63,465 bases of DNA, filler included, from Dugesia japonica (GCA_001938525.1; 5 parts of 5 records of this genome joined end to end with filler, not necessarily neighbours in it); one strand, 5' to 3'. Counted from the first letter of the whole stretch, positions 1-39,800 are shown. The notes: generated by a model from the sequence alone, not told the origin. Translations and numbers: made by a program.

Positions 1-774
1 AATTAGTTAGGGCGTAAAATTTGTTCAGTTTTTTTGTGAGAGTTTTGGTGTTGTTTTTAACTAAAATCAGGATTATTTTTATACGGTTTCTGATGCAACC
101 CGGCATCATTGTCATTGGGTACTATTTTTAACTTGAAATCTTGGATTTTTATTGGTGTTGGTGTCATGTTTCCAAANNNNNNNNNNNNNNNNNNNNNNNN
201 NNNNNNNNNNNNNNNNNNNNNNNNNNNNNNNNNNNNNNNNNNNNNNNNNNNNNNNNNNNNNNNNNNNNNNNNNNNNNNNNNNNNNNNNNNNNNNNNNNNN
301 NNNNNNNNNGATGGTGGTAAGATTTTCTTCTTAACAAATTTTAATGCTTCTTGTTATTTTCATTCTGAATTTTCTTACCCGGATTCTCACTGATTTTCCT
401 GAACGGAGTTATTTGGGTAAAACAGATTTTTTAACTAATTTTACTTCTTTTTATTTTAAAATTAATTAATATTTTTTCTGTTGATTGATTGTTTTCCCAT
501 AATGATTTTCTTGATTTTTATTATGAATTTACTAATTCTTTTGAATTCCAATACCGATGTAAGTTAGTTTTATGTCACCCGGTTTGTCATATCCATTTCC
601 AATTCTTTTCTAACAGTTATTTCATTATAATCTTCCTAGATCATAATTACTTTTCCTTTTTGGATTTCATTAAGGGTAAAAATAATCGTCCTGCCGTTCT
701 TCTATGCTGATTTTGGGTTTTATGCTTTATTACCTTCCTTTTTTTGTTTTTAAAACGATTGTTTCACCCCAACA
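1..774 (-). mobile_element. 5' part of long LTR (copy A), minus strand, running off the window start
   Basis: Reverse complement begins TGTTGGGGTGAAAC at 774, the same terminus as 13055. The rc of 60-175 (caccaataaaa...cccaatg...gggttgcatcagaaaccgtataaaa) matches the promoter at 22690-22780 (caccaatgaaa...gccaata...gggtgcattcggaaaccgtataaaa). Spans an N gap. Confidence 0.7.
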
Positions 775-2084: not shown

Positions 2085-2366
2085 TAATGTGTATTATTTA
2101 ATATATTTTGAAAATGTCGTTGTTAGCACTTACTGTGAATTCACATAAACTATAAATGATTTAAAATAACAGAATTAATTAAACGATAAACGATGCAAAT
2201 AAAATGTTTAAAACAAACAGGTCAAAGTAAATTGAAATATGATGAAATTAAATAATCCACTAAATAAAGCAGTTTTATCGAAGCAGCCACTCGAAACTAA
2301 ATTATTATAATCATAGCACATATTTGCAAATTAAATTAACATAAAAAATTCATGAATTATTTAGAT

Positions 2367-2714
2367 ATGTCAACCAGGATCACAAAACCTACAAGAGAAG
2401 AGTTGTTGATCAAACAGCAGAATACTCAGACAGAGATCAAGAGATTAAGGAAAGAGAATCGTAAATTGTGAGAGTTGGCAGGTGAAACTAAGATGAAGTT
2501 GTCCACATTGAAAGAAAAATTGAGTGTGGGTAGAAGAAGGGAACTCACACTCATAGCTAATAATCGGATGATGGCGGAAATTATTAAGGATTACGCCGAT
2601 CGAGAATCCGCAGTGCTAGGAAATGTTCGAATTCTATGGAGAGAGTATCATACTCAGAGCGTCAACGACCAAGAAGAAACCATCACGGATAAAACCATAT
2701 TCGGTTCACCATAA
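2367..2714 (+). pseudogene. Coiled-coil mini-ORF exon MSTRITKPTREELL...FGSP (one internal TGA)
   Basis: Acceptor ttatttAG at 2363-64, ATG at 2367, stop 2712-14, AATAAA 2725-30. Confidence 0.55.
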
Positions 2715-4376: not shown

Positions 4377-4589
4377 GATCACGCCTGCAGAATTGTGTAC
4401 CGCGTTGCGTTTAATTCGTAATGAGAGAAAGTCGGCCAGCCTAAATCTAATCATAGGCCATTTACTTTTCCCGAAACTAGTAGAGCATCCTGATAAAACA
4501 GACTTAACTGCATCGAGGAGAGGTTTCCGCTAAAATTTGCGGTTGATATGAATGATAACTAGTTTAATGATTATAATTTTTCGAATAAA
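4377..4589 (+). pseudogene. Cassette exon alpha, copy D (ATG decayed to ACG, frameshifted)
   Basis: PAELCTALRLIRNERKSASLNLIIGHLLFPKLVEHPDKTDL aligns with 24489 MSAELRKALRLVRKQRKTSQLRQLLAHILSRSKVEHPDETDL. Acceptor 4375-76, AATAAA 4584. Confidence 0.65.
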
Positions 4590-4658
4590 AATTGTTATTA
4601 GTGTTATTTGCTGCATATTTATCTATATTGACTTATAACTAATTATTGGTTTCTTCAG

Positions 4659-4989
4659 TGTCCGACTATCGCTGGCGTTTGGTTTTAGACGAAAATATGA
4701 ATCGAATGGTTTTCCAACGTCAACGAAATCTACATAACAGTTGTGCCGATATTTTAGCGGACCGTTCAAACGTGTCCCTCGCTAAAGAAGCCAAGCCTTG
4801 GCACCTCGATACCGTTGAGCGCCGCGCATATCAGAATTGGCCCACAAAAAGCCGGAAGAATACGAGAATGTCCATTCCCCTTCCTCACCTACTTCATCTG
4901 AACTAGAGGTGTTCATGGATGACTTGTTATGGAGTATTAGAAACTCCAATATTAAATCCTAATTTTTCTTGCTTTATTAGTTCAATAAA
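4659..4989 (+). pseudogene. Cassette exon beta, copy D
   Basis: cAG|TG TCC GAC TAT CGC TGG. SDYRWRLVLDENMNRMV..ILADRSNV..WHLDTVERRAY aligns with 24830 MDYVWEILLYVRTNKIV..VLRDNSNL..EWDAFERNTY. AATAAA 4984. Confidence 0.6.
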
Positions 4990-5171
4990 TCTTTATATTT
5001 AGTGTTCAAATAAGCGTTAATTAATTAAGATTTGTTTGATAGAGATTAGATTAAATACTTATGTTATTCGTTATTGAGATAAGTTTGTAAAAAATTGCGT
5101 TATGATAATACAGTATATACTCCTTATGATCTTAAATCGTCACCCTTGTTAATTTGTTTCTCTATCTTTAG

Positions 5172-5531
5172 TGAATTCTTCACGCCATCGATCCGTGGCT
5201 CATCCCAAGAAGGTGCGATACAATAGTGAGAATATATAATTTACCTGGGAGGTCTACTGCCACCTCCAACGCCAAAGTTAAGCGGTATAAAAAACGTTGT
5301 GCTGAATACCGTCTCAAAACAGAAGCCTCTAATATGCAGGAGAGAACTTAGAAAGGCCAGTTGGAAGACTTCACCAACATAATTCAGTCCTTACATGAGA
5401 AGGAAGGTAAATTAGTGACCAACATCATGTCATTACATAATCGCATTCCAATAGACACTCTCTACATCGATAAATCAACCCAAACTCTCACTCTCCAAAA
5501 CTGATGTTGAAATAGTGTAAAATGAAATAAA
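5172..5531 (+). pseudogene. Cassette exon gamma, copy D (coiled-coil, degenerate)
   Basis: tAG|TG AAT TCT TCA. AKVKRYKKRC...ERT*KGQLEDFTNIIQSLHEKEGKLVTNIMSLHNRIP..DKSTQT aligns with 25431 SKVKRYKTKC...DRVWKGQVESFTEIIRSSQDRENKLVDDILTLKEKIP..DKGIQA. AATAAA 5526. Confidence 0.7.
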
Positions 5532-5624
5532 ATTTTGTAGAATTAAACTCTCATTCCGGATTTATAACTTAAAATTTTTGAGCTTGTTCTTTTATAATTT
5601 AACTATGACTGATGAATAAATTGT

Positions 5625-10800: not shown

Positions 10801-11850
10801 CAGAATAATCCAAATGTCAGTAACAACAATATAAACAGTATATAAATATATACTGTATATAGTATATAAACAGTATATAAACAATATAAACAATAACAAC
10901 AACCAGTAAAGTTTGTTTCCAAACTAAAGCCATCTCTAAATGAATGTCTCAAATGGATAAATAGGAAAAAATCATTGAAAAACTCAAATGCAAAGAAAAC
11001 GCACTTTCAGCAAATAAGAACTGCAATGAATTTTTCATGAGGATTCATGATACAGATATATCGTTTAATGTACTTAATAAAGAAATAGTCCTTTATATGA
11101 TAAACAAGACAAGAGGAACCTATATTATTACTCATACCTCTCGTAAAGAAATTTCAAATATCATTCACAACCTACACTTTGATTCATACGCTGAAAATGG
11201 AAAAAGAGCAAAGTAAGCAACTTGATATTCACAACCATTCAATTGAGCCCTATTATTAATAAAATGATTTTCAAAAGTGACCTCAATGAATTTTAGTGAA
11301 ATTTCATTCTTAGTGCACAAAGAATTTCTCTATCAATACGTGGTAGATCCTTTTATGAAATAAAAAACTGTCGGCGCTGTTTTACTGAAAATGAATCTTT
11401 ATCAAATGTTCTTCAAAAATGCAAAATGAATCAGGCAATAGCAACTGAAAGACATAATGCTTGCCTTGATATTATTGTCANNNNNCTTAAGACCTCAAAT
11501 GCTATTGTTGAGGTTAATAGAATAAATAAATATATTTCAGATTCTAGGGAAAGAGTGGATGTTACAGTAATTAATGTTGAAAAAAACAATATATCTAATT
11601 GACGTCAAATGTCCAATAGACTCCAAAAAGAATTTTGAAGAGTGTAACAAAAAAATTCAGAAAAATATGATCTACTAAGAACTAAAGTGACAATAGCAAA
11701 GCCTGACTTTGAATTAGAATTACAAACTTGCATAATTGGATCCCTTGGCTCAATTCCAACCACAACCATCCGAATTCTAGAAATAATTATCGAAAACAAA
11801 AATATAATTAAAAAAATATTAAAAGAGTGCTCCAAATCAAATATAGCCTN
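7866..11850 (+). mobile_element. NeSL-clade non-LTR retrotransposon with N-terminal Ulp1/C48-like protease domain(s), degenerate
   Basis: WFTDVDIDCYL, HWILFV and QDQYNNYD(fs)CGAFTC (Ulp1). RT motifs WRPITLLS, LDIKNAFGSVPH, GVKQGCPL, LAFADDL, YQYLGV. CRRCFTENESLSNVLQKC zinc knuckle, RVDVTV..IDVKCP endonuclease, IIGSLGS. Confidence 0.85.
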
Positions 11851-12080
11851 NNNNNNNNNNNNNNNNNNNNNNNNNNNNNNNNNNNNNNNNNNNNNNNNNN
11901 NNNNNNNNNNNNNNNNNNNNNNNNNNNNNNNNNNNNNNNNNNNNNNNNNNNNNNNNNNNNNNNNNNNNNNNNNNNNNNNNNNNNNNNNNNNNNNNGTTAT
12001 GTTTAATAAATTTTATTATTATCAATAATAATATGACTCAACATCGGTTTCCTCACTATTTCTAGAACCCATGATAATTT

Positions 12081-15000
12081 TCAGATACTTTTTTTCTTGA
12101 TAAATATTGAGTGTAATTGACAACGTTCTCTGATAAGTTGTATATCATCTTTGGGTAAAGACTTGAGTCGGTCAAAATTCTCTAAATTGTTTAAAAAGGT
12201 GACAAAGAGTCCAACTGTCTCAGTTTTATCAGTTAGGCTGCCATTGTATTTGAAAAAATTGAAAACGTTGTCTAGTTCCAACTTTGCAAAGGAAGCCAAA
12301 TCATTTGAGAATCTTTGTATTCTGTTGATGATTTCGTTGGAGGTTTTGAGAACGTATTCTTCCATAATGGGATGTCCTTTATTAAAGGGATTTTTTGTCT
12401 TTGGTCTAAAGGTTGCTTCCGCATATGAGATAAATTTTGATTTGAGGTGGATGTCAGAACTTTCAGCTGTCAAATTGTTGGATTTGATAATTGAAGCAAC
12501 CCTTTTAGTANATGAGTATCTAGCTTTTTCAAAATTTGTTATGTCCAGAAGATATTCTAAATTCAATAGATGTAGCAGGATGTTAATTTCCCAAGGTTTG
12601 AATTTGTTACCATCTTGGCCTACGAGAAATTTGAGGAAGTCTTTGTTGATTGTTTTGATTAAACTAATAGTGAAGGTAGATGATTTGGAAGATTTCTGTT
12701 CAATGATCTTTAGGATTTTGAAGAGTACATTTTGATAGAATAGGTTTCTTGTATGACTATGATTTAAGAGATTGAAAATTTTAGATTTTGGAAATCTACT
12801 ATTTAATTCTTGATATTTTTTTACGTTTTCATAGGACATATATTTGTTATAGATATGTTTTTCGTTTGATACTTTTTCAGATATCTCTATTTGAGCATTT
12901 GCAGCAAGAGCGGATTTGTTGAAAAAATGCGTTTCTGTTTTATTTTTACCAACCTTCGGTTGGCGAAAACTTTTGGCATCTAAAATACTATGAGTATCTG
13001 ATAATAAAGAAACAAATTTCTCTTTATTTTCAGATATTTTTNANTTATTACATTTATTGGGGTGAAACATTTGAGAATGGAAAATAAACCAGCGATTAGG
13101 TACACCTGAAATTTAAAAGAATGTCACAAGAAAGAAAACGAAGAACACAGACAAAAGAAGGAGTTAGATCAGTTACCGAAAGGAATAATTGAAGAAAACA
13201 TCGAAATAAAGGAACTAAATATGGGAAATGATCCGCAACCTAGTGAGTTACAAAGGAAGAAAAGAAATGTTGGGAGACAAAAAGCGGACTGAGAGAACAA
13301 AGAAAGGAAAATTAATAACGTAAGAAAATAATTCATTAAATAAAAGAAAGAAAGTCAAAGGNNNNNNNNNNNNNNNNNNNNNNNNNNNNNNNNNNNNNNN
13401 NNNNNNNNNNNNNNNNNNNNNNNNNNNNNNNNNNNNNNNNNNNNNNNNNNNNNNNNNNNNNNNNTTTTGGAAGAAAATAAAATAAATAATTTATTTATTT
13501 AAATAAAATAAATCAAACCAATTAAAACAATTTAATTTTAAAAGAAAATTAAATATTTTGGGAAATATGGAAAAAAAGACAACTTTCCATGGCAAAAAAA
13601 TCAGCAAATAAAAACATTATGGTCCGGCAAAAATAGGAAATTTTAAAGATTCGAGTTAGAAAATCATAACGAGACTCAGAAAAAAGATACAAGGGTTTGA
13701 AGATGGACCAATAACTTTGGAATCCTAAAATAACCAACCATAAAATGAACTCATGTGATGTTCAAGCCAATAGAAACATTAGAAAAATCGTATGATGTTA
13801 AGTAACCAATGAAAGGAACGAGGGTGTAAAGAAAAACAGTATAAATACCATTTTAATTTCAGAAAAAAACTATTCATAAAAATTTCCTAAGCGAAAACTG
13901 AAAACAAAGTCGATCAAAAAACTTTTGAAACCAGACGTTAAACAACTTCAACTACAATTATTACTTAAAGGTAACCTCTTATTACCTGATTTCTACAATG
14001 GTTTCCGACTCAAAAGAATCTATCAGAAAATAATTGAAGAAGTGAATCATGAAATGATTCCCTATGTGCTTGCTCCAGATCGATATTGCAGTCCACGCTA
14101 GTTTTTAGTTTTATTGATGTAATTTTAAGTTAGTGTGTAATGGATGGAATTAGTAATATAACTTTCCATAACCATATTTCTTTTATTTAATATAGTTTTA
14201 TCTTAATTCTTTTGTTAAACTGATACCTTTAATTAGAACTAAAATGAGCTCACCTCGTTANNNNNNNNNNNNTATGTAGAATGATAAGTTAAAAATGTTC
14301 ATTAATGTATCTCCAGTAAAACAAAACTGGAATTTTAATATGGTTTTTCTCGGTTAATTTAACTCCAATCTTAGAAAACTTATAATTAATTCCGATAAAA
14401 ACTAGATAAAATGGTAAAGCCAACTAAACGACTCATAAAATGTACTGAACAATATAAGGACTACTAAGAAAGTAAGCAATATAAATCAAGTATGATTTAA
14501 AAATCACGCGAGTATCACGAAGTATAACATAAAGCAAAGGAATGCGAGTCTGTACTCGGACTCCGAGTCAACAGCTCCATTTAGAAGATCTGGAATTTTG
14601 AGGACACCAGATTAAATTCTTCGCGGGGTTTTACTAGGCCCTAGACTAAACTTTCTAAAGGATTAATCCACCTAGGTAAAACCCCAACACATTTTTCAGA
14701 TATTTTTGAAGTTGTATAGCTCGATACAAAAGCATTTGATTAGTTGAACAAATATTTTCTTGTTTCACGAGTTATCTTCGTTTCTTATAAATTAAGGGGA
14801 ATGGTGAACCCGAATTAAAGGTACGCGAGTGTGAACTCCAAATAAGCGTTGGGAGTCAACGACTCTATACCGAAAACCTAAATGAGGGACTTTAGGTAAA
14901 TTCTTCAAAGGGACCCCTGAGAGCTGTCTTTTCCACCAGCCATATTTTTCAATCACTAACTCAGGTGGAACCACAACACGTTTATATTGCTTTGATGTCA

Positions 15001-15260
15001 TTAATATATTAGTACAATTTTCAATTTACTTAATTCTCTTCGGGTAATTTGATAATTCCATTATTTTTGATTTATACGAGTTATTATTCTAAATTTATTC
15101 TTGCATTTGCTTCTTGTAAATCAATTTTTATCTTTATTTTACCATTTAGTGTGTTCTTTTTGTAATCATTGAGTTAGATTATTAATTTATTTTTTAAAAT
15201 ATTTTTTACTTTTCACCTTTTTCAACATTTCTGGACGGATTTTTCGACGGATCAACCATT
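12081..15260 (-). pseudogene. Unidentified ORF (>330 aa), probably element-derived, split by the solo LTR at 13055-14978
   Basis: Removing the LTR and one TSD copy joins MTSKQYK(R/C) (15001-14979) in frame to N..KISENKEKF (13054 downward). No recognisable domain. Confidence 0.45.
13055..14978 (+). mobile_element. Solo LTR (copy B, ~1.9 kb) of a gypsy-like element
   Basis: Termini TATTGGGGTG (TG>TA) and GGAACCACAACA; 4-bp TSD CATT/CGTT. Several CCAAT boxes plus TATA at 13840. The last ~170 bp are homologous to 26340-26513. Spans two N gaps. Confidence 0.75.
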
Positions 15261-15589
15261 ATATTTAGATAAAAATGAAAAAATGAGTTTTTTCAGTCTA
15301 TATTTTTTTCAATAAAAATTACATTTATATTCTAATAAAAACTTTTCTCTATAATAAAATTTTATTTTATTAAAATACCGTTTTAAACCAATAAAATCAT
15401 AAAGTTTTTAATTTTAAATTATATTAAATTTTTTGAAAAACCTATAAATAACAAAAATTGCAAATTATTTTACTCTGATTGTGGAATAAATTTTACATCT
15501 TATTTGTTTAGACAACTTTTTACTTTATTAGGAATAAAAAATCATCTACATCATATTTTTTATCTGCAATCAGATGATTTGATAAAGAG

Positions 15590-16170
15590 GACATTTAGAA
15601 CGGAATATAAAGGATTGGATCAAAGTTTTACCGACAATTGAATATGGTTTGAGAACTACTGCCCATAAAACAAGAAAAGGATTGGCCGTATGAAATTATA
15701 TTCGATCGCAATTCAAGGCTATAATTTTGCGATATTTCTAAAAACAATGATGCTGAGACAATAAATTATGAGCAGTTTACATTTAATCTACAAAGTAAAC
15801 TAAAATTGATACAAGAAAAGTTAAAAAGAATGTTGAAACAATGATCCATAAAAGAGCAGAAAAGTATGATAGAACAAGATTGAATAAGAAACCAAATATG
15901 GAGGATAGGGTAATGGTAAGAAACGAACACAGAGAAGGATTTGGTCAAATATTTATCGGACTCTTTATTATTAGTACAAATAAAAACTAGTTGAAAAGTG
16001 AAGTGTCAACAAGTAATACAAAACATTTATAATCTGATCAAACACATTCCGTAAGTTATCAACATCTCAAAGTACAAGTATTCAGAGAATGAGAGGAACA
16101 AACAAACAAGTTAGTAAGAACAAAATATCCAACTCGCTCTACTAGAAATTCAAATTTCAAATACAGATAG
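15590..16170 (+). mobile_element. Gypsy-type integrase C-terminal fragment, degenerate
   Basis: DWIKVLPTIEYGLRTTAHKT..PYEIIF.R matches the integrase W..LP.I..LR...H....SPYE..FGR motif. Confidence 0.6.
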
Positions 16171-17208
16171 TTATTGATGAGCAACGTCTATATTTTAATT
16201 TTTCTTTACTGAACTGAAAGATCTTAGCTGTTTCTTTTGTTTTAGTTCACAGTCGTTAGCTATTGTTTGCACGGATTTAAAATCACACAAATTTTTACAG
16301 TAAACAGTTGATTAAAGTATCGATTAGAATCAACACAAAACTGTTATTGTGAATATCATATTTTTACAATTATTGCAAGAATAATTGTTAGACGTAACTA
16401 TTGATCGTTTTTTAGAATTCATTTAAATAAAAGCTTCGATCAAATTATTTTAATAAAAAATCATATTTGATTTTTATGATAGGTTTATGATTTTAAAATC
16501 ACAATATATTTTTAGAGTCTTTTTGCAGCGCTATTCTTAGTTTAAAATAATGAAAATTGTTTTTTGTTTATTTTGTTCATTGCCAAAAACGCTGTCTGCA
16601 ACTTGGTAAACAAACTACTGCATTTCTTCAATGCAAAGGTGCAGCTTATATTCGGGATTTTACATTATTTATTTTTATTAATATTATTACAGGGTTTTGC
16701 ATAAATATATTTAAAAATTTGTTTGATTTTACATGATATGATACACTTTCAAAAAATAAATACATCGAATTAACAAACATTATCCAATGAAATTGACGAT
16801 ACTCAAGTTTTAATAAAACAGCGAAAAAAAGCCCTTGTAAAACAAGAATCTATTTAAATAAATGTTTATGAATATTGGAATATTTGATTTTCTTATATTT
16901 TAAACATTTTACAAGATTATTATTTTAAATATATTTTGAAACTTTTTTAATATATTTCTGCAAAAACCTATCTTAATTTTTGAAATAAAATAAATATTAT
17001 GATTCACAAACAAATTTACTTTTTACACAAATTACTTTTATTTATCATAAAAGCAAATAATTTATTTTCTAAAACAAAAAAGTTCATTATCTGATTTAGA
17101 AAAAGAAANNNNNNNNNNNNNNNNNNNNNNNNNNNNNNNNNNNNNNNNNNNNTTAATTAATTAANNNNNNNNNNNNNNNNNNNNNNNNNNNNNNNNNNNN
17201 NNNNNNNN

Positions 17209-17275
<67 letters not shown>

Positions 17276-17627
17276 TTGTACAATGGCAATTATTGCGAGA
17301 ATAATTGTTGGACATAACCATTGATCGTTTTTTAGAATTCAATTTAAATAAAAGCTTAGATCAAAAAATTTTTTTTTTGTTTATAGATTCGATATTTCGA
17401 CCTTGTCTTTGTTAGGAATTGACTTTTCAATTCCTGACATAGACAAGGTCGAAATATCGAATCTATAAACAAAAAAAAATTTTTGATCGAAGCTTTTATT
17501 TTAAATAATAATAATATTAATGATAATAATAATAATGATAATAATAATGATAATAATAATGATAATAATAATAATAANNNNNNNNNNNNNNNNNNNNNNN
17601 NNNNNNNNNNNNNNNNNNNNNNNNNNN

Positions 17628-17694
<67 letters not shown>
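17209..17694. repeat. (AAT)n microsatellite containing an inverted Penelope-type terminal repeat pair
   Basis: AAT tracts at 17209-17274 and 17505-17694 flank a ~165-bp near-perfect palindrome at 17340-17504. Confidence 0.8.
17430..17465 (+). ncRNA. Degenerate minimal type I hammerhead ribozyme motif (Penelope pLTR)
   Basis: attc-CTGAcat-agac-aag-gtc-GAAA-tatc-gaat. Sister copies (28030-28055 -, 34410-34437 -, 39280-39305 -, 39323-39353 +, 44795-44823 -, 45921-45955 +) give the consensus attcCTGAnGAAGAC..GTCGAAA....GAAT. Confidence 0.55.
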
Positions 17695-17695
<1 letters not shown>

Positions 17696-18599
17696 TTACC
17701 TCACCATCACAGCTGAGTAAGTTTGAAATGGATGAAATGCACGAATAGCATATCGATGGAGCGGTGTAACTCTTATAAAAAACATAAGAAAAATAAAATA
17801 AAATAATAAAAAAAATTGATTTTTACAATTTTAATAATTATGTGCAAGTAAGTATAAATTTTATATTTTCGTAAAATTCTAGTTAATTTAATTTGACAGT
17901 CAATCATATTAAAACAGCCACAAATTATCTGTTATCTCCAGAAAACAGTATGTGCATGTTTATATCAACAAATCTAAAAACTGGAATGTTAAAGTTGAAA
18001 ATTTCCTATTAATAATTATTGAAACATAAATAATAGAATGTCAAAAACAATGAATATATTCATTTATCGTGTTTAACTATTCAATTAGAATGAACAATTT
18101 CTCTAATTAAATATTTGATGACAGAACGATGTGGAATGGCATATATGAAATGTGTAATATGTGCACAACAATCAAATAAAATGTAAACAAAAGTAAATCA
18201 TGGAAACTTATTATTTTTTATAAAAAATCATTAACTAGAATAATTTTTTTCCAATTATATAAAGTGATAAAAAGAAATTCAGAGTGAAATCTTCTGATGA
18301 AGCAATCAAATCATTATAAAGGAAATAGCAAATAAAATTAGTATTTATTTAGTATATTTATATAGTATTTTTATAGTGTATTTATATTTATATAGTATAA
18401 AATACTAATTTCAATTAGTATTTTATTTGATAAACATGACTAAACTTGTCTAGAATTCCTCTACAGGAAGACAATAATATTCGACCAATCCATGCAAAAG
18501 TAAAATATCAAAAATCAAAATGCAAAGAAAGTAATATTGGCTTGTAAAGTTCAAAACACACTTCCAAAAATGAAAATATTGAGAACACGTGTCTCAATA

Positions 18600-19420
18600 T
18601 TGGAGTAATATTTTACAATGTGGTTTTCGACATTTAGTTTTAATATTTCAATTTAATATTTTGCGTTTAATAATTTCGTGTTTTCTATAATTGGGAGGTG
18701 CAGAAACTCATATTCGACATTGTTTGTTATACGAGTTCAGGAAAGGATCAACTACCTTTAGTGAGAACTTTGATCTATTTGAAAGTAGAGACTAAAGTTC
18801 TTCAAATTTGGACTTTTATTGAAGAAGACCCAGAGTTTACAACACTCGAATAGGAAGATCGCTTACAGGTCTCTCACGCCACCATTGCCACTCATATTTA
18901 TCAATTAAGTAACGTGAATAAAGAAAGGTCATGGGTTCCTCAATGCTTGTGTGTAAGCAAAAAACACAAAATTCTTTCATTTGTTCATCCATAATCTCTA
19001 TGTTCAAAAAACCTTTCTCAAACGAATTGCGACATGAGATAAAAAGTGGATGCTTTATGTTAATATTAAAAGATAAAAGGAGTAGTTAACACCTGGTCAG
19101 AAACCAATATCTACAGGTAAACAGGACTTCATCCTCGCCGGATAATGATGTCTGTTTGGTAAGATTATTGTAGTGTCATATATCTTTAATTATTACCACA
19201 AAACATTTATCTCAGGAAACATCTACTACGATCATTTCGGAAAACTGGGGGCTGAATTGAAAAATACAAGACCTGATCAATAGAAAGAATGTCATCATCC
19301 AACATGACAACGTCAGGACCCATACTTTAAAACTCACACTGCAAATAATTAGAAAATTAAAATGAGAAGTTTTTCCTTATCCAGCATACTCAAATAATCA
19401 AACTTGTATTTTCCAATTCA
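18600..19420 (+). mobile_element. Mariner transposase pseudogene
   Basis: WVPQCL (WVPHEL), KRIAT*DKKWMLYVN (TGDEKW), GLHPRRIMMSVW, IIQHDNVRTHT, EVFPYPAYS. Confidence 0.8.
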
Positions 19421-20032
19421 TCACTTGAATTAATATCCATCCCAAACCCTTAATAAATAAAAAATTATGTTTATATTTATGATTATATTTATATTTATGT
19501 TCATTGTGTAACAGCTCGTTTTCACCATTTTTTACAGAAAAATAATAATTTGCACCTCCAAATATAAGAAATTTAACAGCTAGCTTTGGATTATTTGATT
19601 AAGAGTGTTAAATTCTCAAACAATCCCAAATTCAAAATAATCAATTAATTGTTTGACAATTGACAATATTATTTATTCTGTGATCCCCTTGTAACGATTT
19701 TTATCTATTATTCACTATAATTTATTTTTAATTTTGTTATTTATTGATTTTAAATTGTTTGTATTGAAATTATTGATAGTTATTTCATTTTAAATAGTTA
19801 TGATTCTGATTTTGATTTGATTTATTGATTTTTAGGAATTGATTTTGATTATATTTTACTTTATATTTTTAATTAATTAATTGTTAATTATCTCCAATTT
19901 AGGTTAATTAGTTTGTCCTAAATTGGAGGTAATGAATTTTTATGTATGTGAATTTATCTTTGTTATTTTTATTTTTTTAATTGAATTAATTTCTGACCTT
20001 TCTGAGGAGATCTGATGAAACCCACTCTAGGT

Positions 20033-20301
20033 CAGGGGTGCACAATTTTTTTCTAGACCGTCCGCAAACATCAATTTAAATCAATATCGTCGGCCCTGCA
20101 TGCAAAAGTTTTGTGCATATATTATAGGTACTATACTATACTATATAACTTGGAAAATTTAATATAGCACTGTTAAAGAGTCATTTTGCATCAAGTATTT
20201 TGGAGGAGATCCTTGTAAATCTGTGAAATATTTATTGTATAGAATTACATTTTGGATTTTTTTATGTACTTGGGTTGCGGGTCGTATGTTGTGCACGCCT
20301 G
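20033..20301. mobile_element. hAT MITE
   Basis: TIRs caggggtgcacaa / ttgtgcacgcctg; 8-bp TSD ctctaggt/ctctaggc. Confidence 0.85.
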
Positions 20302-21011
20302 CTCTAGGCTCATATCAAACACATACAGATAATAAATTTTTTTAGTAATCCTAGAATCCTAAAAAACATTTTATTTGAACTTTTTTATGGATTTATTGTG
20401 GTTAGGTACTATTATTTATATTAAGTGAATTGAGTGAATAATTTAAATTCAAGTATAATGGTCTGATGTAACTCGTCGAAAACAGGAATTAAATGAAAAA
20501 ACTCAAAAAGAAAACAGTTTCATTATAGCAGAGTTTTAATCAAAGTCTACAGCAATCAGAATAAGAAACGTTGATAATCAAATTAATAAAAGATTTATCA
20601 AACTCAATATGAAACTCAATCAATAAACAAACTAATTTAATTTCGATATTAATCGTTAATGTTATAATGATTATTATTAAGGTTGCACCCCACTTGTGAT
20701 GTAAACATGTATTTGTGAAATGAAATCAATTGATAAAAAATATATTAGATAAATTAAAATAATTTCCATTTAATTGAATTTGTAGACATTTAATTTAAAA
20801 TTATCCACTAGAAAAACGTCTCCTGAGCTTATGTTAGACGGCTCCGCTAACTACTGATCAAATACTGATAATTCCCATTTGGATGAAAATTTGTTTAGTC
20901 GTTCGATCTGCAATAAATTTCTAATTTAGGGTTTTTACAAAATAGATTCAAATAGTGTCTGCATGTCTTAATCGATATTTAAATGATAATTATTTTTATT
21001 ATTATGTTATG

Positions 21012-21012
<1 letters not shown>

Positions 21013-21077
<65 letters not shown>

Positions 21078-21127
21078 NNNNNNNNNNNNNNNNNNNNNNN
21101 NNNNNNNNNNNNNNNNNNNNNNNNNNN

Positions 21128-21195
<68 letters not shown>
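21013..21195. repeat. (AAT)n microsatellite
   Basis: Pure AAT repeat on both sides of a gap. Confidence 0.95.
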
Positions 21196-21446
21196 TACTT
21201 TGGTTGACAATATCGCAAGTCTCAATAAATATTTCTTTAACCACAAATTGTTTTGGTTTATGTTGAAAGTTAAAAATGATGAATATTCAAACAAATTAAT
21301 TCTCATTAATATTTTAATGAAAAAGTGTTTTAAAACATAACCAATCTACTTTAAAATTTCAATATTTAAAATCTTTCTTAATATATTTTACACAAAATAT
21401 ATTTTAATATATACTCAATAATTTTAATTTTCGATAATAATTTTAA

Positions 21447-21635
21447 CACGTTCACTGCCAACTACGAGAAAAACCTCGTATAAGATGTTTCATTTATTGT
21501 AAAATGATTATTCTTTTTGTAATTACGTATGAGACTGTTAGTTGAAAATATATGATATTTATTTCAAAGATTAATATTTATATTCGATGTGACTTGCAGG
21601 TAAAAAATATAAAATTGTGTGTTGCAGCGAATGTG
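21447..21635. mobile_element. piggyBac-like MITE
   Basis: TTAA on both sides; TIRs cacgttcactgccaac / gttgcagcgaatgtg. Confidence 0.7.
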
Positions 21636-22137
21636 TTAATTAATATTTTCAAAATCGACAATTGAAGAAATGCCAAAAATAAATACTAAAGAATTTTAAT
21701 TACAAATGTTAACAAACAATAATAATTTAAAGCTAATCTATAAAATTGAAAAATTTCATATGGCCAGAGCTATTTCTTACAATAATAATCATCTTATACA
21801 TACAAAATATTTTTATGAATTAACCTACTCTGATAGAGGTTTTATTGATCATATTGATGCTTCTATTCATAGAACGTTGGTTACCCAGGCCGCATAGTTC
21901 TGTAAGATCACGAACATTAGTGTCAAAATACGCTACACTATTGTCTTTACAAATACAATCGATCTCAATAAGTTCGATTGTTACCGGACACTCTGAAATG
22001 TAAATAATATATTCAAACTGCAAAATATTATAAAATTGATTATCAAAATAACACAAACATTTCATTAATAATCAATTAAAATTAATAGATGGGTGGTAAC
22101 AAGCTTTACCAAAATTAAATATTAAATTCGTTTAAAT

Positions 22138-22441
22138 TAGGCCTGGCCAACACGTGCCCAACGTAATTTTTTTCTGACACTAATTTCTTTTTTTTTTTAA
22201 AAATATATTAAATGAAAATTGATGTGTTTCCTTGTTTTTCATGTGAATATATTTTTTCTAATGTAAAAAAATTTTAAAATATATATTCATACAATTTTTT
22301 CTTTTAAAAATAATAAAAAAAATTTTAGATTTTGGATATTACTTACTAAATTTAAAAAAACATTTATTTAAACTTATTATTTTATTTTATTTATTTATTA
22401 AATAAAATTACACGTGAAGCCATTTAGGTTGACCAGGCCTG
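22138..22441. mobile_element. hAT MITE
   Basis: TIRs taggcctggccaac / gttgaccaggcctg; perfect 8-bp TSD gtttaaat. Confidence 0.85.
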
Positions 22442-22689
22442 GTTTAAATCATATACAGTTATCCCTCGTATAACGCGATAAAAAATCTCCAATTTGGAAG
22501 TAATTATAAATAAAGCCTAGTAAAGTTAATTCTCTATAAACAGTGCATTACACAGGGTTCTTGGTGAGCGTTATATAGGAGTACTTCTATAACGCGTTTA
22601 CCAAAAAAACTAAGGAATGACAATCACATGTCACTACAAAAATAGCTACCAACAGAATCTCTAAAAATATGTAAAAATTTCAGAAAACT

Positions 22690-22785
22690 GGCACCGACAC
22701 CAATGAAAATTGAGTGCTTTAAACTAAAAATAACCAGCCAATACAAAACAAATTGGGTGCATTCGGAAACCGTATAAAAGCCAAG
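22690..22785 (+). promoter_or_regulatory. LTR promoter: two CCAAT boxes and TATA box
   Basis: caccaatg, gccaata and ccgTATAAAAg, with spacing conserved in copy A (rc 77-175) and a similar layout in copy B (13706-13846). Confidence 0.6.
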
Positions 22786-23248
22786 TGAAAAACACACGAA
22801 AAAAACAACAAAAAATTTACCATTTATCTCTGCTTAGCTAATATAGTAACTTTGTGAAATTTCTAATTCAATTACTCAATCAGAAATATAACTATCGATT
22901 AGTAAGTTCACATTCGAATAAACCAGTATTTGACAATATTATTCCGATTTCTAGTAAAGAAGTGTTGCTACTCACAGTAGCAAGAAGAACGACAGGAGAA
23001 ATTTTCTAACAGATTAATCAAAGTTAATTACCCACTAAACCCGTTGCAGTTAGTTCTATTCTTGACAGTAAGCCTATGTTTATTTTATATCTAGTTAATT
23101 GTATGTCATGAATGTTGAATAATTTAACAAAATATAAAGAATTAAAATCGCCACTTTACTGCGTTATGATTTTGTTTATTCCGTTATGTAATGTAACCAA
23201 ACATTAAATTATTAATAATATGCTCTTCACAAATACCTGTTTCGACAG

Positions 23249-24320
23249 TGATTGTTTTAGGTCCAGATCACAACGTGTACGATCTCATAAACTGCCGTGA
23301 GTATGAGAAGGAAATGTACACCCCAAAATACTGGTGAGTGCGGATATGTGAGATTAATTTCATTATAATTCTACATCTATTTTTTTATCAGAGACCAGAT
23401 GGCAATAATCTATGATTTTGAGCAGTGGTTAGAGAGAAAAGAATTTGCGATAATTGACCTCACAACATGCAAAATTGCACACCTACAATTAAGGCCTGAC
23501 AGTCGCACGTATCATTTCTGGCTGTTTGCTATAGATTAATATTAAGCCTCCACAATCTATAGCGTACTACACAGCAGTCATATCGGTTTCACTCTAGAAA
23601 AAATTAAATAAGAAGCTTCTAGTGATGATACTATCAGGTTAATCAGGCTAACTAAGATTGAGTCATCAGTTATGTTTCATTCCCTAGATCGGAATTAGTT
23701 TAATGTCAACGCTAAGTATTCTTAATGCTATTTAATCTAAGTTCTTTTTAAGGAAATCTCCATTTCTACTAGTAAATCGGTTGGTATTAGCACTATTCTA
23801 GTAATATGACCAAATGTAGCAACTACTTCGTTATCAACAGATTCATTATTATGGCTGTCAGGATTTTTTACAGATACAGTACCACATTTCGTATTATCCT
23901 GAAGTCGTTTGCATTAATAATGAAATGACGGAGATTGTTAGTAGTATTTTCAGTAGTTAAATGGCGAGTGAAATTTGAATGTTTGCCCGTATTGTATTAG
24001 CTACACCCAGGTTATGGTCCAGTGATTCTCCTTTTTGTTTATCAATATTTGTGATGAGTATTATTAACCTCTTATTTTTAAAATTCTGAGAGTTACTATT
24101 GGGAATGTTGTTCTTCTCAGACAAATGGAACATGATATTATAGATATTGCCAATAAATTAGTTAATGCAGTTAAAGGTATTATTAACTGCACCCAGCTTA
24201 TTCCTAACACAGGTATCCCTATCATCCCGACCACTGGCATTATTAGGATTTATTATGACTAATATTATCAATATTGTTATTAATTCTTGGTATTACTATT
24301 ATTATTAATATTAATACCAT
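23249..24320 (+). pseudogene. First, longer cassette ORF of LTR copy C (has an internal intron at 23334-23391, multiple stops)
   Basis: cAG|TG ATT GTT TTA GGT CCA opens (M)IVLGPDHNVYDLINCREYEKEMYTPKY. After the gtgagt..tatcag intron the frame continues (junction codon TGA) DQMAIIYDFEQWLERKEFAIIDL. The 3' limit is uncertain. Confidence 0.45.
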
Positions 24321-24488
24321 GTGAGTAATATTATTATTATCATGGGAGTGACTAACCTAAGTTTACTTCCATCCTATTATTCATATACCAGTATAGTGAG
24401 CCATGGTAATCAGTCAGATAATTGTTTAATTGAATCAAATTATGAATATATCTACATTGCTCATTTTAATCTATAATAATTTTAGTTA

Positions 24489-24683
24489 ATGTCAGCAGAA
24501 TTACGAAAAGCACTACGTTTAGTCAGGAAACAACGTAAGACCTCTCAATTGAGGCAGTTATTGGCCCACATCTTGTCAAGGAGTAAGGTGGAACACCCCG
24601 ACGAGACAGATTTAGCGTGTCTAACTGAGATATTCCCACTGATAACCAATGTAGATTTAGATGATGAGGACATACTCTCTTAA
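24489..24683 (+). CDS. Cassette exon alpha, 64-aa microprotein (intact ORF)
   Basis: Acceptor tttAG 24484-85, ATG 24489, TAA, AATAAA 24712; homologue at 4377. Confidence 0.6.
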   Translation: MSAELRKALRLVRKQRKTSQLRQLLAHILSRSKVEHPDETDLACLTEIFPLITNVDLDDEDILS

Positions 24684-24829
24684 GGATTTTCGTTATATTA
24701 GAATCGGTTATAATAAATTTATATGAAAAGTGTTTGGTTTCTTTTATTTACAAAAAATTCTTTTTTTATTATAGGTATCACCTTCAATGTTATGTTAAAT
24801 TAAAGCATGTTTTCCTTTATTTATCAGAA

Positions 24830-25177
24830 ATGGATTATGTATGGGAAATCCTTCTCTACGTACGCACAAATAAAATCGTGTTAAACGTTATTACAATCCC
24901 CATGATCGAAATGAAGGGAGTGCTGCGAGATAATTCCAATCTGGCGCCCCTCGACGCTGATAACGAGCGCGAGTGGGATGCCTTCGAACGGAATACGTAC
25001 TACGAACGGAGAGGTCCCGATAGGACTCAGGAAGTGCTTCATCGAACTACTGTATTAAATCCAATAACCGGTGAGTCTACTAGCGAGTGGCGGGACGATC
25101 CGACGCTTTTACGCTTGTCAGCCGCACCCTTACCACCCAATCCTGGTGCAACTGCCGACATAGGTAACACACTATGA
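24830..25177 (+). CDS. Cassette exon beta, ~115-aa protein
   Basis: Acceptor tatcAG 24826-27, ATG 24830, AATAAA 25288; homologue at 4659. Confidence 0.6.
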   Translation: MDYVWEILLYVRTNKIVLNVITIPMIEMKGVLRDNSNLAPLDADNEREWDAFERNTYYERRGPDRTQEVLHRTTVLNPITGESTSEWRDDPTLLRLSAAPLPPNPGATADIGNTL

Positions 25178-25430
25178 GATCTGCAAAATAGCGCAAGCGG
25201 TGGATCAGCCGAGAATAATGCTCCCTATTCGGAAAATGGGGCGCACTAAATGTCAAGAAATCCTCTGACTTAATGTTTTATATGAATAATAAACTTGTAT
25301 GTAAATTGCAAATTAATTTAATTTTTTTCCTTTCATTATCATTGTTACTCCGTCAATGTGATGCGGATATTAAGATATTTTTTAGACTCGTAACTTAAGT
25401 TGATAACAGTCGTAATTCTTCTCGTTTTAG

Positions 25431-25786
25431 TGAACTCTTCGCTCAAGAAGTCATCTGCCCCAACTATGAAAATGCGAGACACCCAAGAGGACCAAGAAAT
25501 GACTTGGGACCTCTACCGGTTGGCCAAGAGGCGGTGGGAGGCTGAGATACCGAATTCCATAAGCAAGGTAAAACGCTATAAGACCAAATGTCTAACCTTT
25601 AAAAAGGAAGACGATTCACACAGCCAGGATCGAGTCTGGAAAGGGCAAGTTGAGTCTTTCACCGAGATAATCCGTTCCAGCCAGGACAGAGAGAATAAAC
25701 TGGTCGACGACATACTAACTCTAAAAGAAAAGATACCCCTCGCACCCCGTATGGGGGACAAAGGAATCCAGGCATCATGGCTGTGA
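25431..25786 (+). CDS. Cassette exon gamma, ~118-aa coiled-coil protein, predicted split start A|TG
   Basis: ttttAG|TG AAC TCT TCG; open to TGA 25786; AATAAA 25804; homologue at 5172. Confidence 0.6.
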
Positions 25787-25903
25787 ACTTTGTCCAATTC
25801 TTTAATAAATAATTTTTCGACTTAATTTTTCAGATGATTCTTGCATTTATATTCAATATATTACTTTAAGTAAAAAATAATAGATTAATGTCATCCTATT
25901 TAG

Positions 25904-26264
25904 TGCCACGAATAACCTTCCCCAATAGTCTAAAGCAATGTCACCGGATTATCCGACGATTATTATTAGAGCGTCACCTTAAATGCCGATCTGAGCGAGA
26001 GTTAATGAAACATCTCGCACAACGAAATAGGCTTATAAAAAACTAGATCTCATAGTTAAGAAACAGGGAGATCTAGCCGAACAAACGAGATAGCTCCTTC
26101 AAAATAAAATTGATTTTTTGAAAAGGTAAATTGCAGATTTATCTCGTCAGCTTGGTAATGCGTCCTGGGTACAATAAAACGACAGTGATGACGAAGCTGC
26201 GTTTAATTTTTTAGATGACGATCCCACCCAGCGGTTAGACCCGGGTGCTATGGATCTCATGTAG
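25904..26264 (+). pseudogene. Cassette exon delta (basic helical N-terminus, acidic tail), degenerate
   Basis: tattTAG|TG CCA CGA opens (M)PRITFPNSLKQCHRIIRRLLLERHLKCRSERELMKHLAQRNRLIKN*; tail DSDDEAAFNFLDDD..MDLM*; AATAAA 26332. Confidence 0.5.
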
Positions 26265-27964
26265 TGTGTTATAAAATATAAATTAGTTTTAAAGATTTGT
26301 TAATTGATTTTGAATATAACATAATAGGGAAAATAAAGAACCCAAATTAAAGGTGTACGAGTGTGAACCTCCCGTAAAGGTTGAAGGTCAACCGATCTAC
26401 ACCGAAGATCTAACTTAGGGGCGTTAGATTAAATTCTTGAGGGGGATCCCATGAGAGCCGTTTTCCCCGGCCAGCATTTCCTTTTCATTATCAACTCAGG
26501 TGGAACCCCAACATTATTATTATTATTATTAAAATTATAATTATAATTATAGTAAAATAGGCAAAATAAAACTTTAAATAAAATAAAATTAATAATGTGA
26601 CAAGCCAGAACAAAACATGAAATAATAATTAAGAATCATATGGGGAATAATAGCAAATTTGTAAATGAATTCTAAAATGAAAGAATAATAAAATTAGTAA
26701 AAGAATGCTTCAATTACTCAATTAAATAGTTCGAGGAATGGAAAATAATAGAGATATGAATGCATTAACGGTGGAATTGTAAAGATTTATAAAATTAGAT
26801 AAATAATAGAGTAGAAATACACAGAAACAATGAAGCAGAATCTAAAAGGATTTATAATATTAATTAAAATGAATTTATAATAATAATAATATATTAAAAA
26901 AAATAAATAAAATTACTTCGAAAATTGACGAGCCGACCAAAGTAAAAAATGAAAATGAACAACTATGTATTAATTATTTATTAACTGATTGACTGTTTGA
27001 AAAGAGTAAACAATGGGGTCTCAGTAGTTTTCGACATTCAATAAAGAACGTGAAAGGAAAGGAAACACCCATCAATCATCAAATCACAGAATAAACAAAA
27101 AAATCTCTTTTTAGTATGCATAGAGTAAAAAATAAGAAAATCGTTTAAAAATAAAATTAAATATTTTATATTATGGAAAAGAGTTAATTTAGTAAAAATA
27201 TTAATTATATATAAAATATCATGTATATAATAATATAAATAACTATGAACATAAAGATGTTCATAGATCAATTAAAGAGGTATAATATTAGATTGTAATA
27301 TTGAATAGGGGGTCAAGCAATGAAAATGTAAAAAAAGTGATAACTTTATAAAATAATATAAAAATTAAAAGTATTTGTTAATCAGGCTCAAAACTATTAT
27401 TAAACATGTCAAACTAGATTTTAATATTATTATGATGTACATAATAATGTAAATAGCCATGTTAATAAAATACAGTTATATTAATCTAAATATAACTTTT
27501 ATTAAAAAATTACTAAACGTAAATGGAAAAGGTATCATGACAAAGTTGTGAATAAACACAAGCAGGGATCATTTTAAAATAAAGATGTCAAAAATTAACA
27601 AATCTAAATCGGGGTTAATTATAATAATATTCACAAATCGTTTTAAAATTACGAGAAGTTATTCTTACAGATGATTTTTGGGTTTAGCATTATAGACGAA
27701 ATTGAGCAATTAAACTTAAAGGAAATAACAAAATAATATACCTAGTTAGTTTGAGGAAGATTATAGATTAGTGTTATTAACAATTTGAGTATTATAAAAT
27801 TATTGGGGGTCAAACCCGAGCCCGATAATTGAAATGAGAAATAGAAGTTAATGTGCGACCAATTAAATAGTAGTGTGATCAACTGATTTTATTGGTTCTT
27901 TGAACATTAAAATTTTATCCTTGCTTACATTTTATTTGAGAAATATTTTTATTGATCATTATGT

Positions 27965-37183: not shown

Positions 37184-38236
37184 ATGGACAGTGAAAATTG
37201 CAGTAATGGTTTTGCTACGTCTGATGACAATTCTACTGATTTAGCTGTACTAATTTATAATGTCCATAATCATGTTTTGCTCGTCCTCCCTATCATTAAT
37301 ATAATTCTTAACGGATTTTGCTTGTTTATATTTTTTGACAAAATTTGGAAAAAATCTATTTTAAGCGTTTTATTGAAATATTTGTCAGCAACTGAAATAG
37401 CATTTAACTTTTCAGGATTTCTGTATACAATTACAAAATTTATTGATTATCCATCAGTTGGTTACTTTTCAAAATTATTCTGGGTTTTCATATTACAATT
37501 TGGAACCTTTACAGTTGCAACTTCTCTGATTTGTCGAAACTGGACAATACTTCATCTAGCCGCCTACAGGTTCGAGAGTATTTGCAGACCATTGAGCTCT
37601 ACTAAAATTTATTCAAATAAATCTGCTTATAAATTACTCTGGTTGACATATTTCCTTGCGGCGATAATTGCTTTACCCCGTACCTTTGAATATGAAGCAA
37701 CATTTTGCAAAGGAAATCTTCAACTTAAACCGGGATTAGTTAAATATCATTGGTATACATATGGATATCAAGGTTCGTTAATTTTCATTACTCAAACTGG
37801 ATGTCCAGTGATTATCACTAGTATTTTAAGTATTGCCGTAATGAGAGCGATATTAAAAATGAAGAAATTTAGAAGAAGTCGTTCAAAAAAAATCCAAAAT
37901 AAAAACAGTTCTGTTTCTGGAGATATTCTTATGATTTTCATTTGTTTTGCATTTTTCGTTTTGGAAATTCCATCGTTTTTCAGCAAAGTTCTTCAGGCAT
38001 ATTTAATAAAAAATCAAAAGCTTATAGAAGATATCTTACTTGCAACTACTGCAAATTTATTGGTGTATCTTGATTCTGTAATCAATATTTTCGTTTACAT
38101 ATTATCTAATCCAACATTTCGTGAGAAATCAAAGAATCTTTTACGAATTAAATGTCAATCGAAAAGTGAAATGGCCACTGAAACGATAGCATTAAAAATG
38201 AAAGACAGTGTAAGTGATAATGAAATTGATAAATAA
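37184..38236 (+). CDS. Intronless rhodopsin-like 7TM GPCR, flatworm PROF1-like orphan family
   Basis: Intact 350-aa ORF with seven hydrophobic segments. TM3 RNWTILHLAAYRFESICRPL (RNW..R motif), TM4 ALPRTFE, TM6 FFVLEIP, TM7 DSVINIFVY..NPTFR. Confidence 0.9.
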   Translation: MDSENCSNGFATSDDNSTDLAVLIYNVHNHVLLVLPIINIILNGFCLFIFFDKIWKKSILSVLLKYLSATEIAFNFSGFLYTITKFIDYPSVGYFSKLFWVFILQFGTFTVATSLICRNWTILHLAAYRFESICRPLSSTKIYSNKSAYKLLWLTYFLAAIIALPRTFEYEATFCKGNLQLKPGLVKYHWYTYGYQGSLIFITQTGCPVIITSILSIAVMRAILKMKKFRRSRSKKIQNKNSSVSGDILMIFICFAFFVLEIPSFFSKVLQAYLIKNQKLIEDILLATTANLLVYLDSVINIFVYILSNPTFREKSKNLLRIKCQSKSEMATETIALKMKDSVSDNEIDK

Positions 38237-39453: not shown

Positions 39454-39800
39454 CTGAAAATGATAGAATTTGATTAAGAATAAAATCCTGAACATATTAT
39501 GTATAGGGTTTGCTGTTCAAAACATAGAAAATTACTGGGTACCATGCTCCATCTTGATAAAAGAAATTATTTACTCTGGAAATACTTATGATAATCAAAC
39601 AAGTTTGATTTTGTTGAACTCAGAATAAAAAACTGAACATATTTCTTATAGGATTTGCTGTATAAAAATGCTTCATTTAATAAATGATATATAATTATTT
39701 AATTTATTATAAATTATAGTTTAAGTAATAATAATTTTGAAAAATATCTTCAGACTTTTAAACTCAGAATTAAAATCTGAACATATTTCATTTAGGTTTA
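39454..39800 (-). repeat. Inverted copy of the ~310-bp complex repeat at 48480-51240
   Basis: ctgaacatattatgtatagggtttgctg is the near reverse complement of cagcaaaccccatacacaatatgttcag (49872). Confidence 0.75.

Follow-up and report, generated by a model that had tools for sequence, protein, structure and literature searches.

A candidate cassette of alternative last exons in a probable gypsy-type long terminal repeat of Dugesia japonica

Can a long terminal repeat (LTR) carry several protein-coding genes of its own? LTRs are viewed as regulatory DNA, and their solo copies as debris without genes. The question is raised by an element at positions 22690–26513 of a 63,465-nt stretch from Dugesia japonica (GCA_001938525.1; hereafter the window, with positions counted from its first letter), which is eukaryotic, 28% GC and rich in repeats. 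An original prediction made from this sequence had read the segment as an LTR in which one promoter and leader serve an array of small last exons. Here, we followed up this reading using the window sequence, four public sequencing runs (X3, X4, X5 and X8) and the literature. Overall, we put the probability that the element is an expanded gypsy-type LTR, 5'-truncated here, with an alternative-last-exon accessory-gene cassette at roughly 60%.

Predicted coding islands and a second copy

The main copy of the element comprises a predicted promoter and leader followed by a series of islands of 41–49% GC separated by spacers of 15–27% GC (Table 1). The promoter motifs, donors, acceptors, AATAAA signals and end of the segment were all present where they had been predicted, and all five predicted islands were found, together with a sixth that had been missed (B) and possibly a seventh (behind acceptor 24120). 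The last four islands had each been said to end in a stop codon and an AATAAA. This held for C, D and E, but F is broken: its frame stops near 26040, after 47 codons, and three later stops interrupt the frame ending at 26264; moreover, the AATAAA at 26332 is weak (20% T downstream, compared to 45–53% for the others) and is missing at the aligned place of a second copy of the element (copy 2). Island B has no AATAAA within 120 nt of its end, and no donor closes island C, D or E at its end.

To score this layout, acceptors followed by a start and an open reading frame (ORF) of at least 35 aa were counted over 22780–26513 and in 500 block shuffles. Six such sites were found, at thresholds that missed islands C and A and counted island B twice, against a shuffle mean of 0.5, and 0/500 shuffles reached six. 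When an AATAAA at most 120 nt past the stop was also required, three sites were found (island F being scored on its premature stop, with an AATAAA internal to it) compared to 0.05 in shuffles, none of which attained three. Over both copies, AATAAA was present in 7/7 spacers examined, where any single spacer would be expected to contain one in 13–42% of shuffles. In the main copy, AATAAA and the next acceptor lay 99–142 nt apart, with T-rich stretches. Four additional AATAAA are internal to islands (24869, 25694, 26103 and 26173). Taken together, the required order of donors, acceptors, stops and poly(A) signals was present, above chance and conserved.

Copy 2 is a decayed member of a diverged subfamily in which islands C, D and E are collinear with those of the main copy, keep their stops, and each have an acceptor and a downstream AATAAA, with TG directly following the acceptors of D and E. 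A translated search of the window placed the homologs of C at 4378–4506 (49% of 43 aa identical) and of E at 5265–5495 (43% of 77 aa), while that of D, at 4659–4906, was weak but collinear (18/75 aa, z 4.4). Identity at codon positions 1/2/3 was 0.53/0.62/0.29 across the 221 aligned codons of the three islands, of which 95 kept position 2 with a change at position 3 and 23 showed the opposite (P = 7e-12). The proportion of differences was 0.80 at synonymous sites (pS) and 0.44 at nonsynonymous sites (pN), with a bootstrap interval of 0.25–0.48 for the difference between them. An alignment made on DNA only gave position identities of 0.57/0.76/0.24 for C, 0.47/0.59/0.35 for D and 0.59/0.68/0.34 for E. 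This codon-position pattern indicates that islands C, D and E are very probably coding sequences under purifying selection. A ratio of nonsynonymous to synonymous substitution (dN/dS) near 1, which the original prediction had set against itself, therefore does not describe these three islands; A, B and F had no homolog with which they could be compared.

Several further readings were rejected. Coding in the terminal segment was discarded on the absence of codon periodicity (0.79/0.66/0.72). Paralogy among islands was discarded on low similarity scores (E and the frame behind acceptor 2364, z 0.8; F and the others, z ≤ 1.8). A match of island F to a 1.6-kb relative of the element was a chance hit in the leader of that relative.

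Other sequences lie in and around the two copies. The 946 nt between islands B and C (23540–24485, 31% GC) contain several minus-strand frames of 58–66 codons and donor-like GTGAG at 24321 and 24396, and contigs of the family cover this stretch. Two further GC-richer islands with decayed coiled-coil-like frames are found on the plus strand at 1430–2085 and 2365–2730, the latter with a cassette-like design (acceptor 2364, ATG 2 nt on, about 120 codons and AATAAA at 2725). Neither had significant similarity to A–F; both may be additional modules, either of copy 2 or of another subfamily. Fragments of non-LTR retroelements, on both strands, are nested at ~5750–13054, where they separate island E of copy 2 from its likely terminal segment. 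They contain reverse transcriptase, CCHC and restriction-like endonuclease motifs, from which we take them to be R2/NeSL-like.

Table 1. Features of the element and its relatives in the window.
Feature	Positions	Strand	Details
Core promoter, predicted	22679..22815	+	CCAAT at 22700 and 22738; TATAAA at 22773
Leader exon 1, predicted	22800..22901	+	Start placed from TATA; ATG-free; final base A, then donor GTAAGT at 22902
Leader exon 2, predicted	22978..23067	+	ATG-free; final base A, then donor GTAAGC at 23068
Island A	23249..23337	+	Acceptor 23248 then TG; 29 codons if A/TG-started; donor-like GTGAGT at 23334
Island B	23392..23539	+	Acceptor 23391; own ATG 23399; 46 aa
Possible further island	24121..24262	+	Acceptor 24120; ATG 4 nt on; 45 aa; 34% GC; weak
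Island C	24486..24717	+	Acceptor 24485; ATG 24489; 64 aa; basic N-terminus; AATAAA 24712
Island D	24828..25293	+	Acceptor 24827; ATG 24830; 115 aa; AATAAA 25288
Island E	25431..25809	+	Acceptor 25430 then TG; 118 aa if A/TG-started; AATAAA 25804
Island F	25904..26264	+	Acceptor 25903 then TG; broken in main copy
Conserved terminal segment	26326..26513	+	Ends CCCCAACA at 26506-26513; probably R-U5 or U5, bearing an integrase attachment site
Copy 2, diverged subfamily, decayed	4377..5531	+	C, D, E in same order; AATAAA 4584, 4984, 5526
Terminal segment, likely of copy 2	14793..14978	+	About 9 kb of nested insertions away from copy 2 island E
Complete 1.6-kb solo-LTR-like relative	13055..14689	+	TATTGGGG...CCCCAACA ends; CATT on both flanks; CCAAT/TATA 785 nt from 5' end
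Third related LTR, 5' part	1..774	-	Starts TGTTGGGGTGAAACA; promoter homologous to 22679-22815

Relation of the array to long terminal repeats

The case for an LTR comes from the two ends of the element. Its terminal segment was identical at 145/190 nt to 14786–14978 (z 40), and the last 175 nt aligned with the last 170 nt of the complete solo-LTR-like relative (109/148 aligned nt, z 9.9). At the other end, the promoter was 65.5% identical over 145 nt (z 8.7) to that of the minus-strand element beginning at 774, which lies 692 nt inside the TGTTGGGG end of that element; the TGTTGGGGTGAAACA start of the latter has 14/15 terminal nt in common with the 1.6-kb element. The promoters of these two relatives were themselves similar (z 4.7), whereas the main-copy promoter and that of the 1.6-kb element were not significantly so (z 0.5). 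The 3' CA end CCCCAACA pairs as a short inverted match with the 5' ends of the relatives, TGTTGGGG and TATTGGGG. From TATA to the CA end, one relative measures 849 nt and the main copy 3740 nt. Based on these homologies, we place promoter and 3' end in one LTR-like unit with a variable middle. Promoter and terminal segment share no direct repeat, so these two parts are not two short LTRs. A location of the cassette inside an LTR is thus probable. The earlier assignment to an LTR is supported by the multi-copy state and by the TG...CA elements to which promoter and 3' end are homologous, but the 5' TG end is absent: the main copy is 5'-truncated and lacks the 5' 600–700 nt of the LTR.

The part of the window where the 5' LTR sequence would be expected contains DNA-transposon fragments, at 22131–22448 (resembling a miniature inverted-repeat transposable element, with 21-nt inverted ends) and at ~22456–22600 (containing repeated ATAACGCG words), and contig depth is high in the bin 22600–22732. 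No TGG primer-binding site followed any of three CA ends (0/3), and paired direct repeats around gag-pol with a primer-binding site and polypurine tract were not found within the window. A TATA-like word lies ahead of the terminal segment in 3/3 copies, at varying distances and with a chance expectation of 21–53% each. Unusual folding of the terminal segment was rejected as a family feature (z -0.6 in copy 1 and -1.0 in copy 2; -4.7 in the solo element only). At the insertion site of the solo element, frame continuity spans 15 codons. An exact 15-nt direct repeat, possibly local to the host frame, occurs near both flanks of this element (13027–13041 and 14693–14707), beside the 4-bp duplication. 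Behind the promoter of the solo element are two short plus-strand frames (13950–14100, 48 codons and open; 14411–14584, with stops), which suggests a minimal version of the cassette.

The element is present in many copies. In run X3, 2481 contigs matched it at 85–100% identity in all 30 bins, 234 of them at 99% or above, 514 at 95–99%, 952 at 90–95% and 781 below 90%. Depth, which does not equal copy number, was ~70–180 over most of the element, with peaks in the first bin (1157), island C (267–462), island E (552–7743), island F (357–3446) and the terminal segment (17544). These peaks fit more subfamilies remaining alike in the coding and terminal parts.

Some of these observations could also be explained if the genes lay in the interior of an LTR element and were driven by an internal promoter, or if the element were a non-autonomous deletion derivative joining an LTR promoter, accessory genes and an LTR end. 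Neither a 5' end nor a partner LTR was seen, the terminal 190 nt are far deeper in contigs and other subfamilies differ just before them, as for a short LTR, and a purine-rich stretch lies ahead of the terminal segment; accessory ORFs outside the LTR are also known in Burro-like elements (PMC6431247, available portion) and MDG1 elements. However, no TG start matching CCCCAACA is present in the terminal segment, and in the element at 13055–14689 the same segment closes a single 1.6-kb unit complete at both ends and with a 4-bp duplication. Promoter and cassette are not separated by a U5 or a primer-binding site, and the order from cassette to terminal segment is kept in two diverged copies. We therefore regard an internal-region or deletion-derivative origin as unlikely.

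A predicted shared leader, predicted split start codons and remaining alternatives

How the islands might be expressed is suggested by the leader. Both leader donors have A as the last exon base (TTA/GTAAGT and ACA/GTAAGC, the slash marking the junction), and leader exon 2 has candidate acceptors at 22977, 23012 and 23049. No ATG occurs behind the TATA box over 22780–23075, as in 17/2138 same-size windows and 4% of dinucleotide shuffles, making its absence a modest signal at the sequence level. Among nine island acceptors compared, TG directly followed five (A, E and F of the main copy; D and E of copy 2), compared to 9/145 pyrimidine-rich AGs on the plus strand of the window (P about 1e-4). 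Splicing of a donor ending in A to an acceptor followed by TG would create the start codon A/TG in a conserved frame. The remaining islands have their own ATG behind the acceptor (7 nt in B, 3 nt in C and 2 nt in D), the sole exception among acceptors without TG being island C of copy 2, whose start is absent and whose frame is broken. Island D begins with its own ATG in the main copy, and the position of copy 2 that aligns with this start has an acceptor-TG. For island E, conservation begins at the acceptor itself (xNSS), and the first frame in copy 2 contains no Met, the internal Met of the main-copy island not being kept there. The split start provides a ground in the sequence itself to expect splicing from a shared leader, and we consider the predicted cis-spliced leader with an A/TG start likely.

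Spliced-leader trans-splicing and operons occur in planarians, and intercistronic distances in Schistosoma mansoni have a median of 99 bp (PMC12582326, in the part consulted). An operon transcribed from one promoter into polycistronic RNA, with genes separated by poly(A) addition and a trans-spliced leader, would agree with the spacing and T-rich stretches between AATAAA and the next acceptor noted above, and with the possession of an ATG by B, C and D. However, flatworm spliced leaders end in AUG (PMC12582326, same part), and such a leader, placed at the five TG acceptors, would open only 1, 1, 4, 10 and 1 codons, compared to 29, 118, 47, 82 and 22 codons, in conserved frames, for a leader ending in A. 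The lack of Met in the first frame of copy 2 island E and the two consensus cis donors ending in A upstream likewise argue against an operon, which is improbable.

In the model that we favour, an LTR cassette of alternative last exons, one promoter would produce an ATG-free leader of one or two exons that is spliced to alternative last exons. Terminal-exon definition is established for Pol II genes; through it, the choice of acceptor would set both the protein and the poly(A) site behind it, with one protein per mRNA. Exons starting with TG (A, E and F; D and E of copy 2) would receive their start by splicing, and the others would use their own ATG 2–7 nt in. Unspliced RNA would read through as genome, and the A/TG genes would be untranslatable from it. 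The cassette would lie either in R/U5, if genome RNA starts near 22800, or in U3, in which case a second start would be expected close to the terminal segment. Subfamilies appear to gain and lose exons as modules, and the broader proposal of a gypsy-type LTR turned modular accessory genome, with one promoter, an A-ending ATG-free leader, variable last exons and subfamilies gaining and losing modules, is about evenly balanced.

Several results weigh against this model. The evidence for selection comes from a single pair of decayed copies, with synonymous sites so saturated as to preclude a dN/dS value, and the homology of island D drops to z 3.0 when all of copy 2 is considered. Islands A, B and F and the frame behind acceptor 24120 had no homolog in copy 2 (z ≤ 1.3), and no homolog of the main-copy leader or promoter was found in 775–5780. 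The nine acceptors had been picked by the original prediction and by homology rather than blind, and adding those at 24120 and 2364, which precede an own ATG, gives 5/11. There was no exact or one-mismatch match to the 5' TGTTGGGG end for the main copy on the plus strand of 13276–27800, four two-mismatch sites in 15000–22700 were without a matching target duplication, and no target duplication, primer-binding site, gag or pol of the main copy was seen within the window. Finally, no splice joint or poly(A) end was found among 42 partial reads of run X5, runs X4 and X8 gave no reads, and the joints in X3 were not GT..AG.

The TG...CA units might instead be derivatives of a Ginger/TDD-like DNA transposon that carry the same kind of cassette. 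They have 9-bp inverted ends with a 4-bp duplication, and a link to gag-pol was not seen; however, the inverted ends are very short, CCAAT/TATA lies 692–785 nt inside the 5' end and faces the 3' end like a U3, and a transposase was found in 0/4 copies, making this distinctly improbable. Decayed fragments of one captured host gene or longer polyprotein, with signals arising by chance, would suit the frequency of AATAAA and pyrimidine-rich AG at 28% GC, the four AATAAA inside islands and the unconfirmed status of A, B and F, but this explanation is very improbable and appears largely refuted for C, D and E. Each of these has its acceptor, frame, stop and AATAAA preserved in both copies, whose third positions are saturated. 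None of the three has a donor at its end, no host or viral relative was found, and the layout was never attained in shuffles.

Transcripts, predicted proteins and known systems

Run X3, whose kind is unrecorded, covered introns and showed GT..AG at 0/13 joints, and thus behaves like DNA. In X5 (~25% read), the 42 partial reads were all less than 95% alike to the element, fell in 7/30 bins on both strands and were mostly from island E and the terminal segment, indicating that relatives of the element are transcribed. Zero reads each were obtained from X4 (~6% read) and X8 (~25% read), too little to test transcription.

None of the seven island frames passed the Pfam cut-off (among 14 proteins searched) or matched PHROGs (0/7). 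A search of 5.8 billion proteins, covering near lengths only, gave no relative of islands D and E, a profile of island E had no match among 1.84 billion representatives, and the ESM Atlas returned nothing for D and only weak bacterial clusters of low recognition for E. Viral contigs contained no relative of the island proteins, and Rfam gave 0 matches; the protein libraries searched are perhaps poor in planarian repeat proteins, and these blanks are no proof of novelty. Seven metagenome pattern matches were rejected as chance, all being 54–63% GC and without similarity. Structure models were poor (predicted local distance difference test, pLDDT, of 57.6 for E and 45.3 for D). Island E was modelled, at low confidence, as two long helices, and a fold search with it gave no match at E 0.001 or better. 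No membrane segment was found in the islands (top 19-residue hydropathy 1.27), nor an MG start. The island proteins (basic or coiled-coil) probably serve the element as accessory factors; that they regulate element RNA or counter silencing by Piwi-interacting RNAs is a guess.

Each part of the proposed arrangement has precedent, and only their combination appears new. The adenovirus major late unit has a shared multi-exon non-coding leader with alternative acceptors and poly(A) sites, but it is a unit of a DNA virus with start codons within body exons and no LTR. Long LTRs and accessory ORFs are described for Burro and Ogre in the available portion of PMC6431247. According to that portion, Burro (GYPSM1), a giant gypsy element of the same host group (Dugesiidae), exceeds 30 kb, has sizes that imply multi-kb LTRs, and encodes a giant polyprotein (Gag-Env-Pol) in which BIR, BCL2, MATH and ankyrin domains occur. 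Compared by description only, its accessory content lies in the polyprotein or an upstream ORF and has known domains, and genes inside the LTR are not mentioned in that portion. Mouse mammary tumour virus (MMTV) sag is an LTR-encoded protein, as proposed here, and thus a known exception to the premise of the original prediction that LTRs are normally non-coding; as far as the accessible text of PMC11998498 goes, it is a single gene in a 1.3-kb retroviral LTR with no array of last exons, and six listed solo LTRs were scored as ORF-less.

The split start has a counterpart in env of Drosophila errantiviruses (gypsy/springer subclade), where splicing makes the start AU/G (10.1101/2023.08.03.551782, part available), although this concerns one internal acceptor and one gene, compared to A/UG predicted here for several acceptors inside an LTR. 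Elements of the MDG1 group (412, Mdg1, Stalker and Blood) have sORF1 and sORF2 near the gypsy 5' end with alternative poly(A) addition after sORF1, but these are two unspliced ORFs upstream of gag, and sORF2 is a membrane fusogen (10.1101/2025.03.14.642691, in the portion seen), whereas the islands have no hydrophobic 19-residue stretch above 1.3. The transmembrane segment and N-terminal myristoylation motif of sORF2/FAST-like fusogens (same portion) are lacking in the island proteins. BARE, in which two TATA sites supply one RNA pool that is translated and another that is reverse transcribed, offers a model for genome RNA escaping internal poly(A) sites, and the part of PMC3735527 consulted reports no accessory genes in its LTR. 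We found no description of the combination in the literature searched, which included the available parts of PMC8532177, PMC11410931 and PMC13238120; the primary Burro paper, its supplements and Repbase lay outside this search and may describe these LTRs.

If the model is correct, every solo LTR of this family would be a self-contained unit with a promoter and several selected orphan genes spread genome-wide, and the annotation of planarian repeats would change. A new exon could join the set with just an acceptor and TG, and unspliced genome RNA could not express the split-start genes. The islands would also supply candidates for transposon proteins that act against or on PIWI control of differentiating cells; loss of smedwi-2 leads to transposon activation (PMC8532177, in its available part).

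Elsewhere in the window, an intronless rhodopsin-family G-protein-coupled receptor gene (37184–38236, plus strand) encodes a protein 70% identical to Schmidtea mediterranea GCR101, and a 600-codon Q/S/N-rich open frame on the minus strand (59581–61383), without a Pfam match, is likely a host-gene exon. Diverged repeat units of ~304–316 nt, including inverted copies, occur at 49068–50152, 51025–51232 and 39455–39778.

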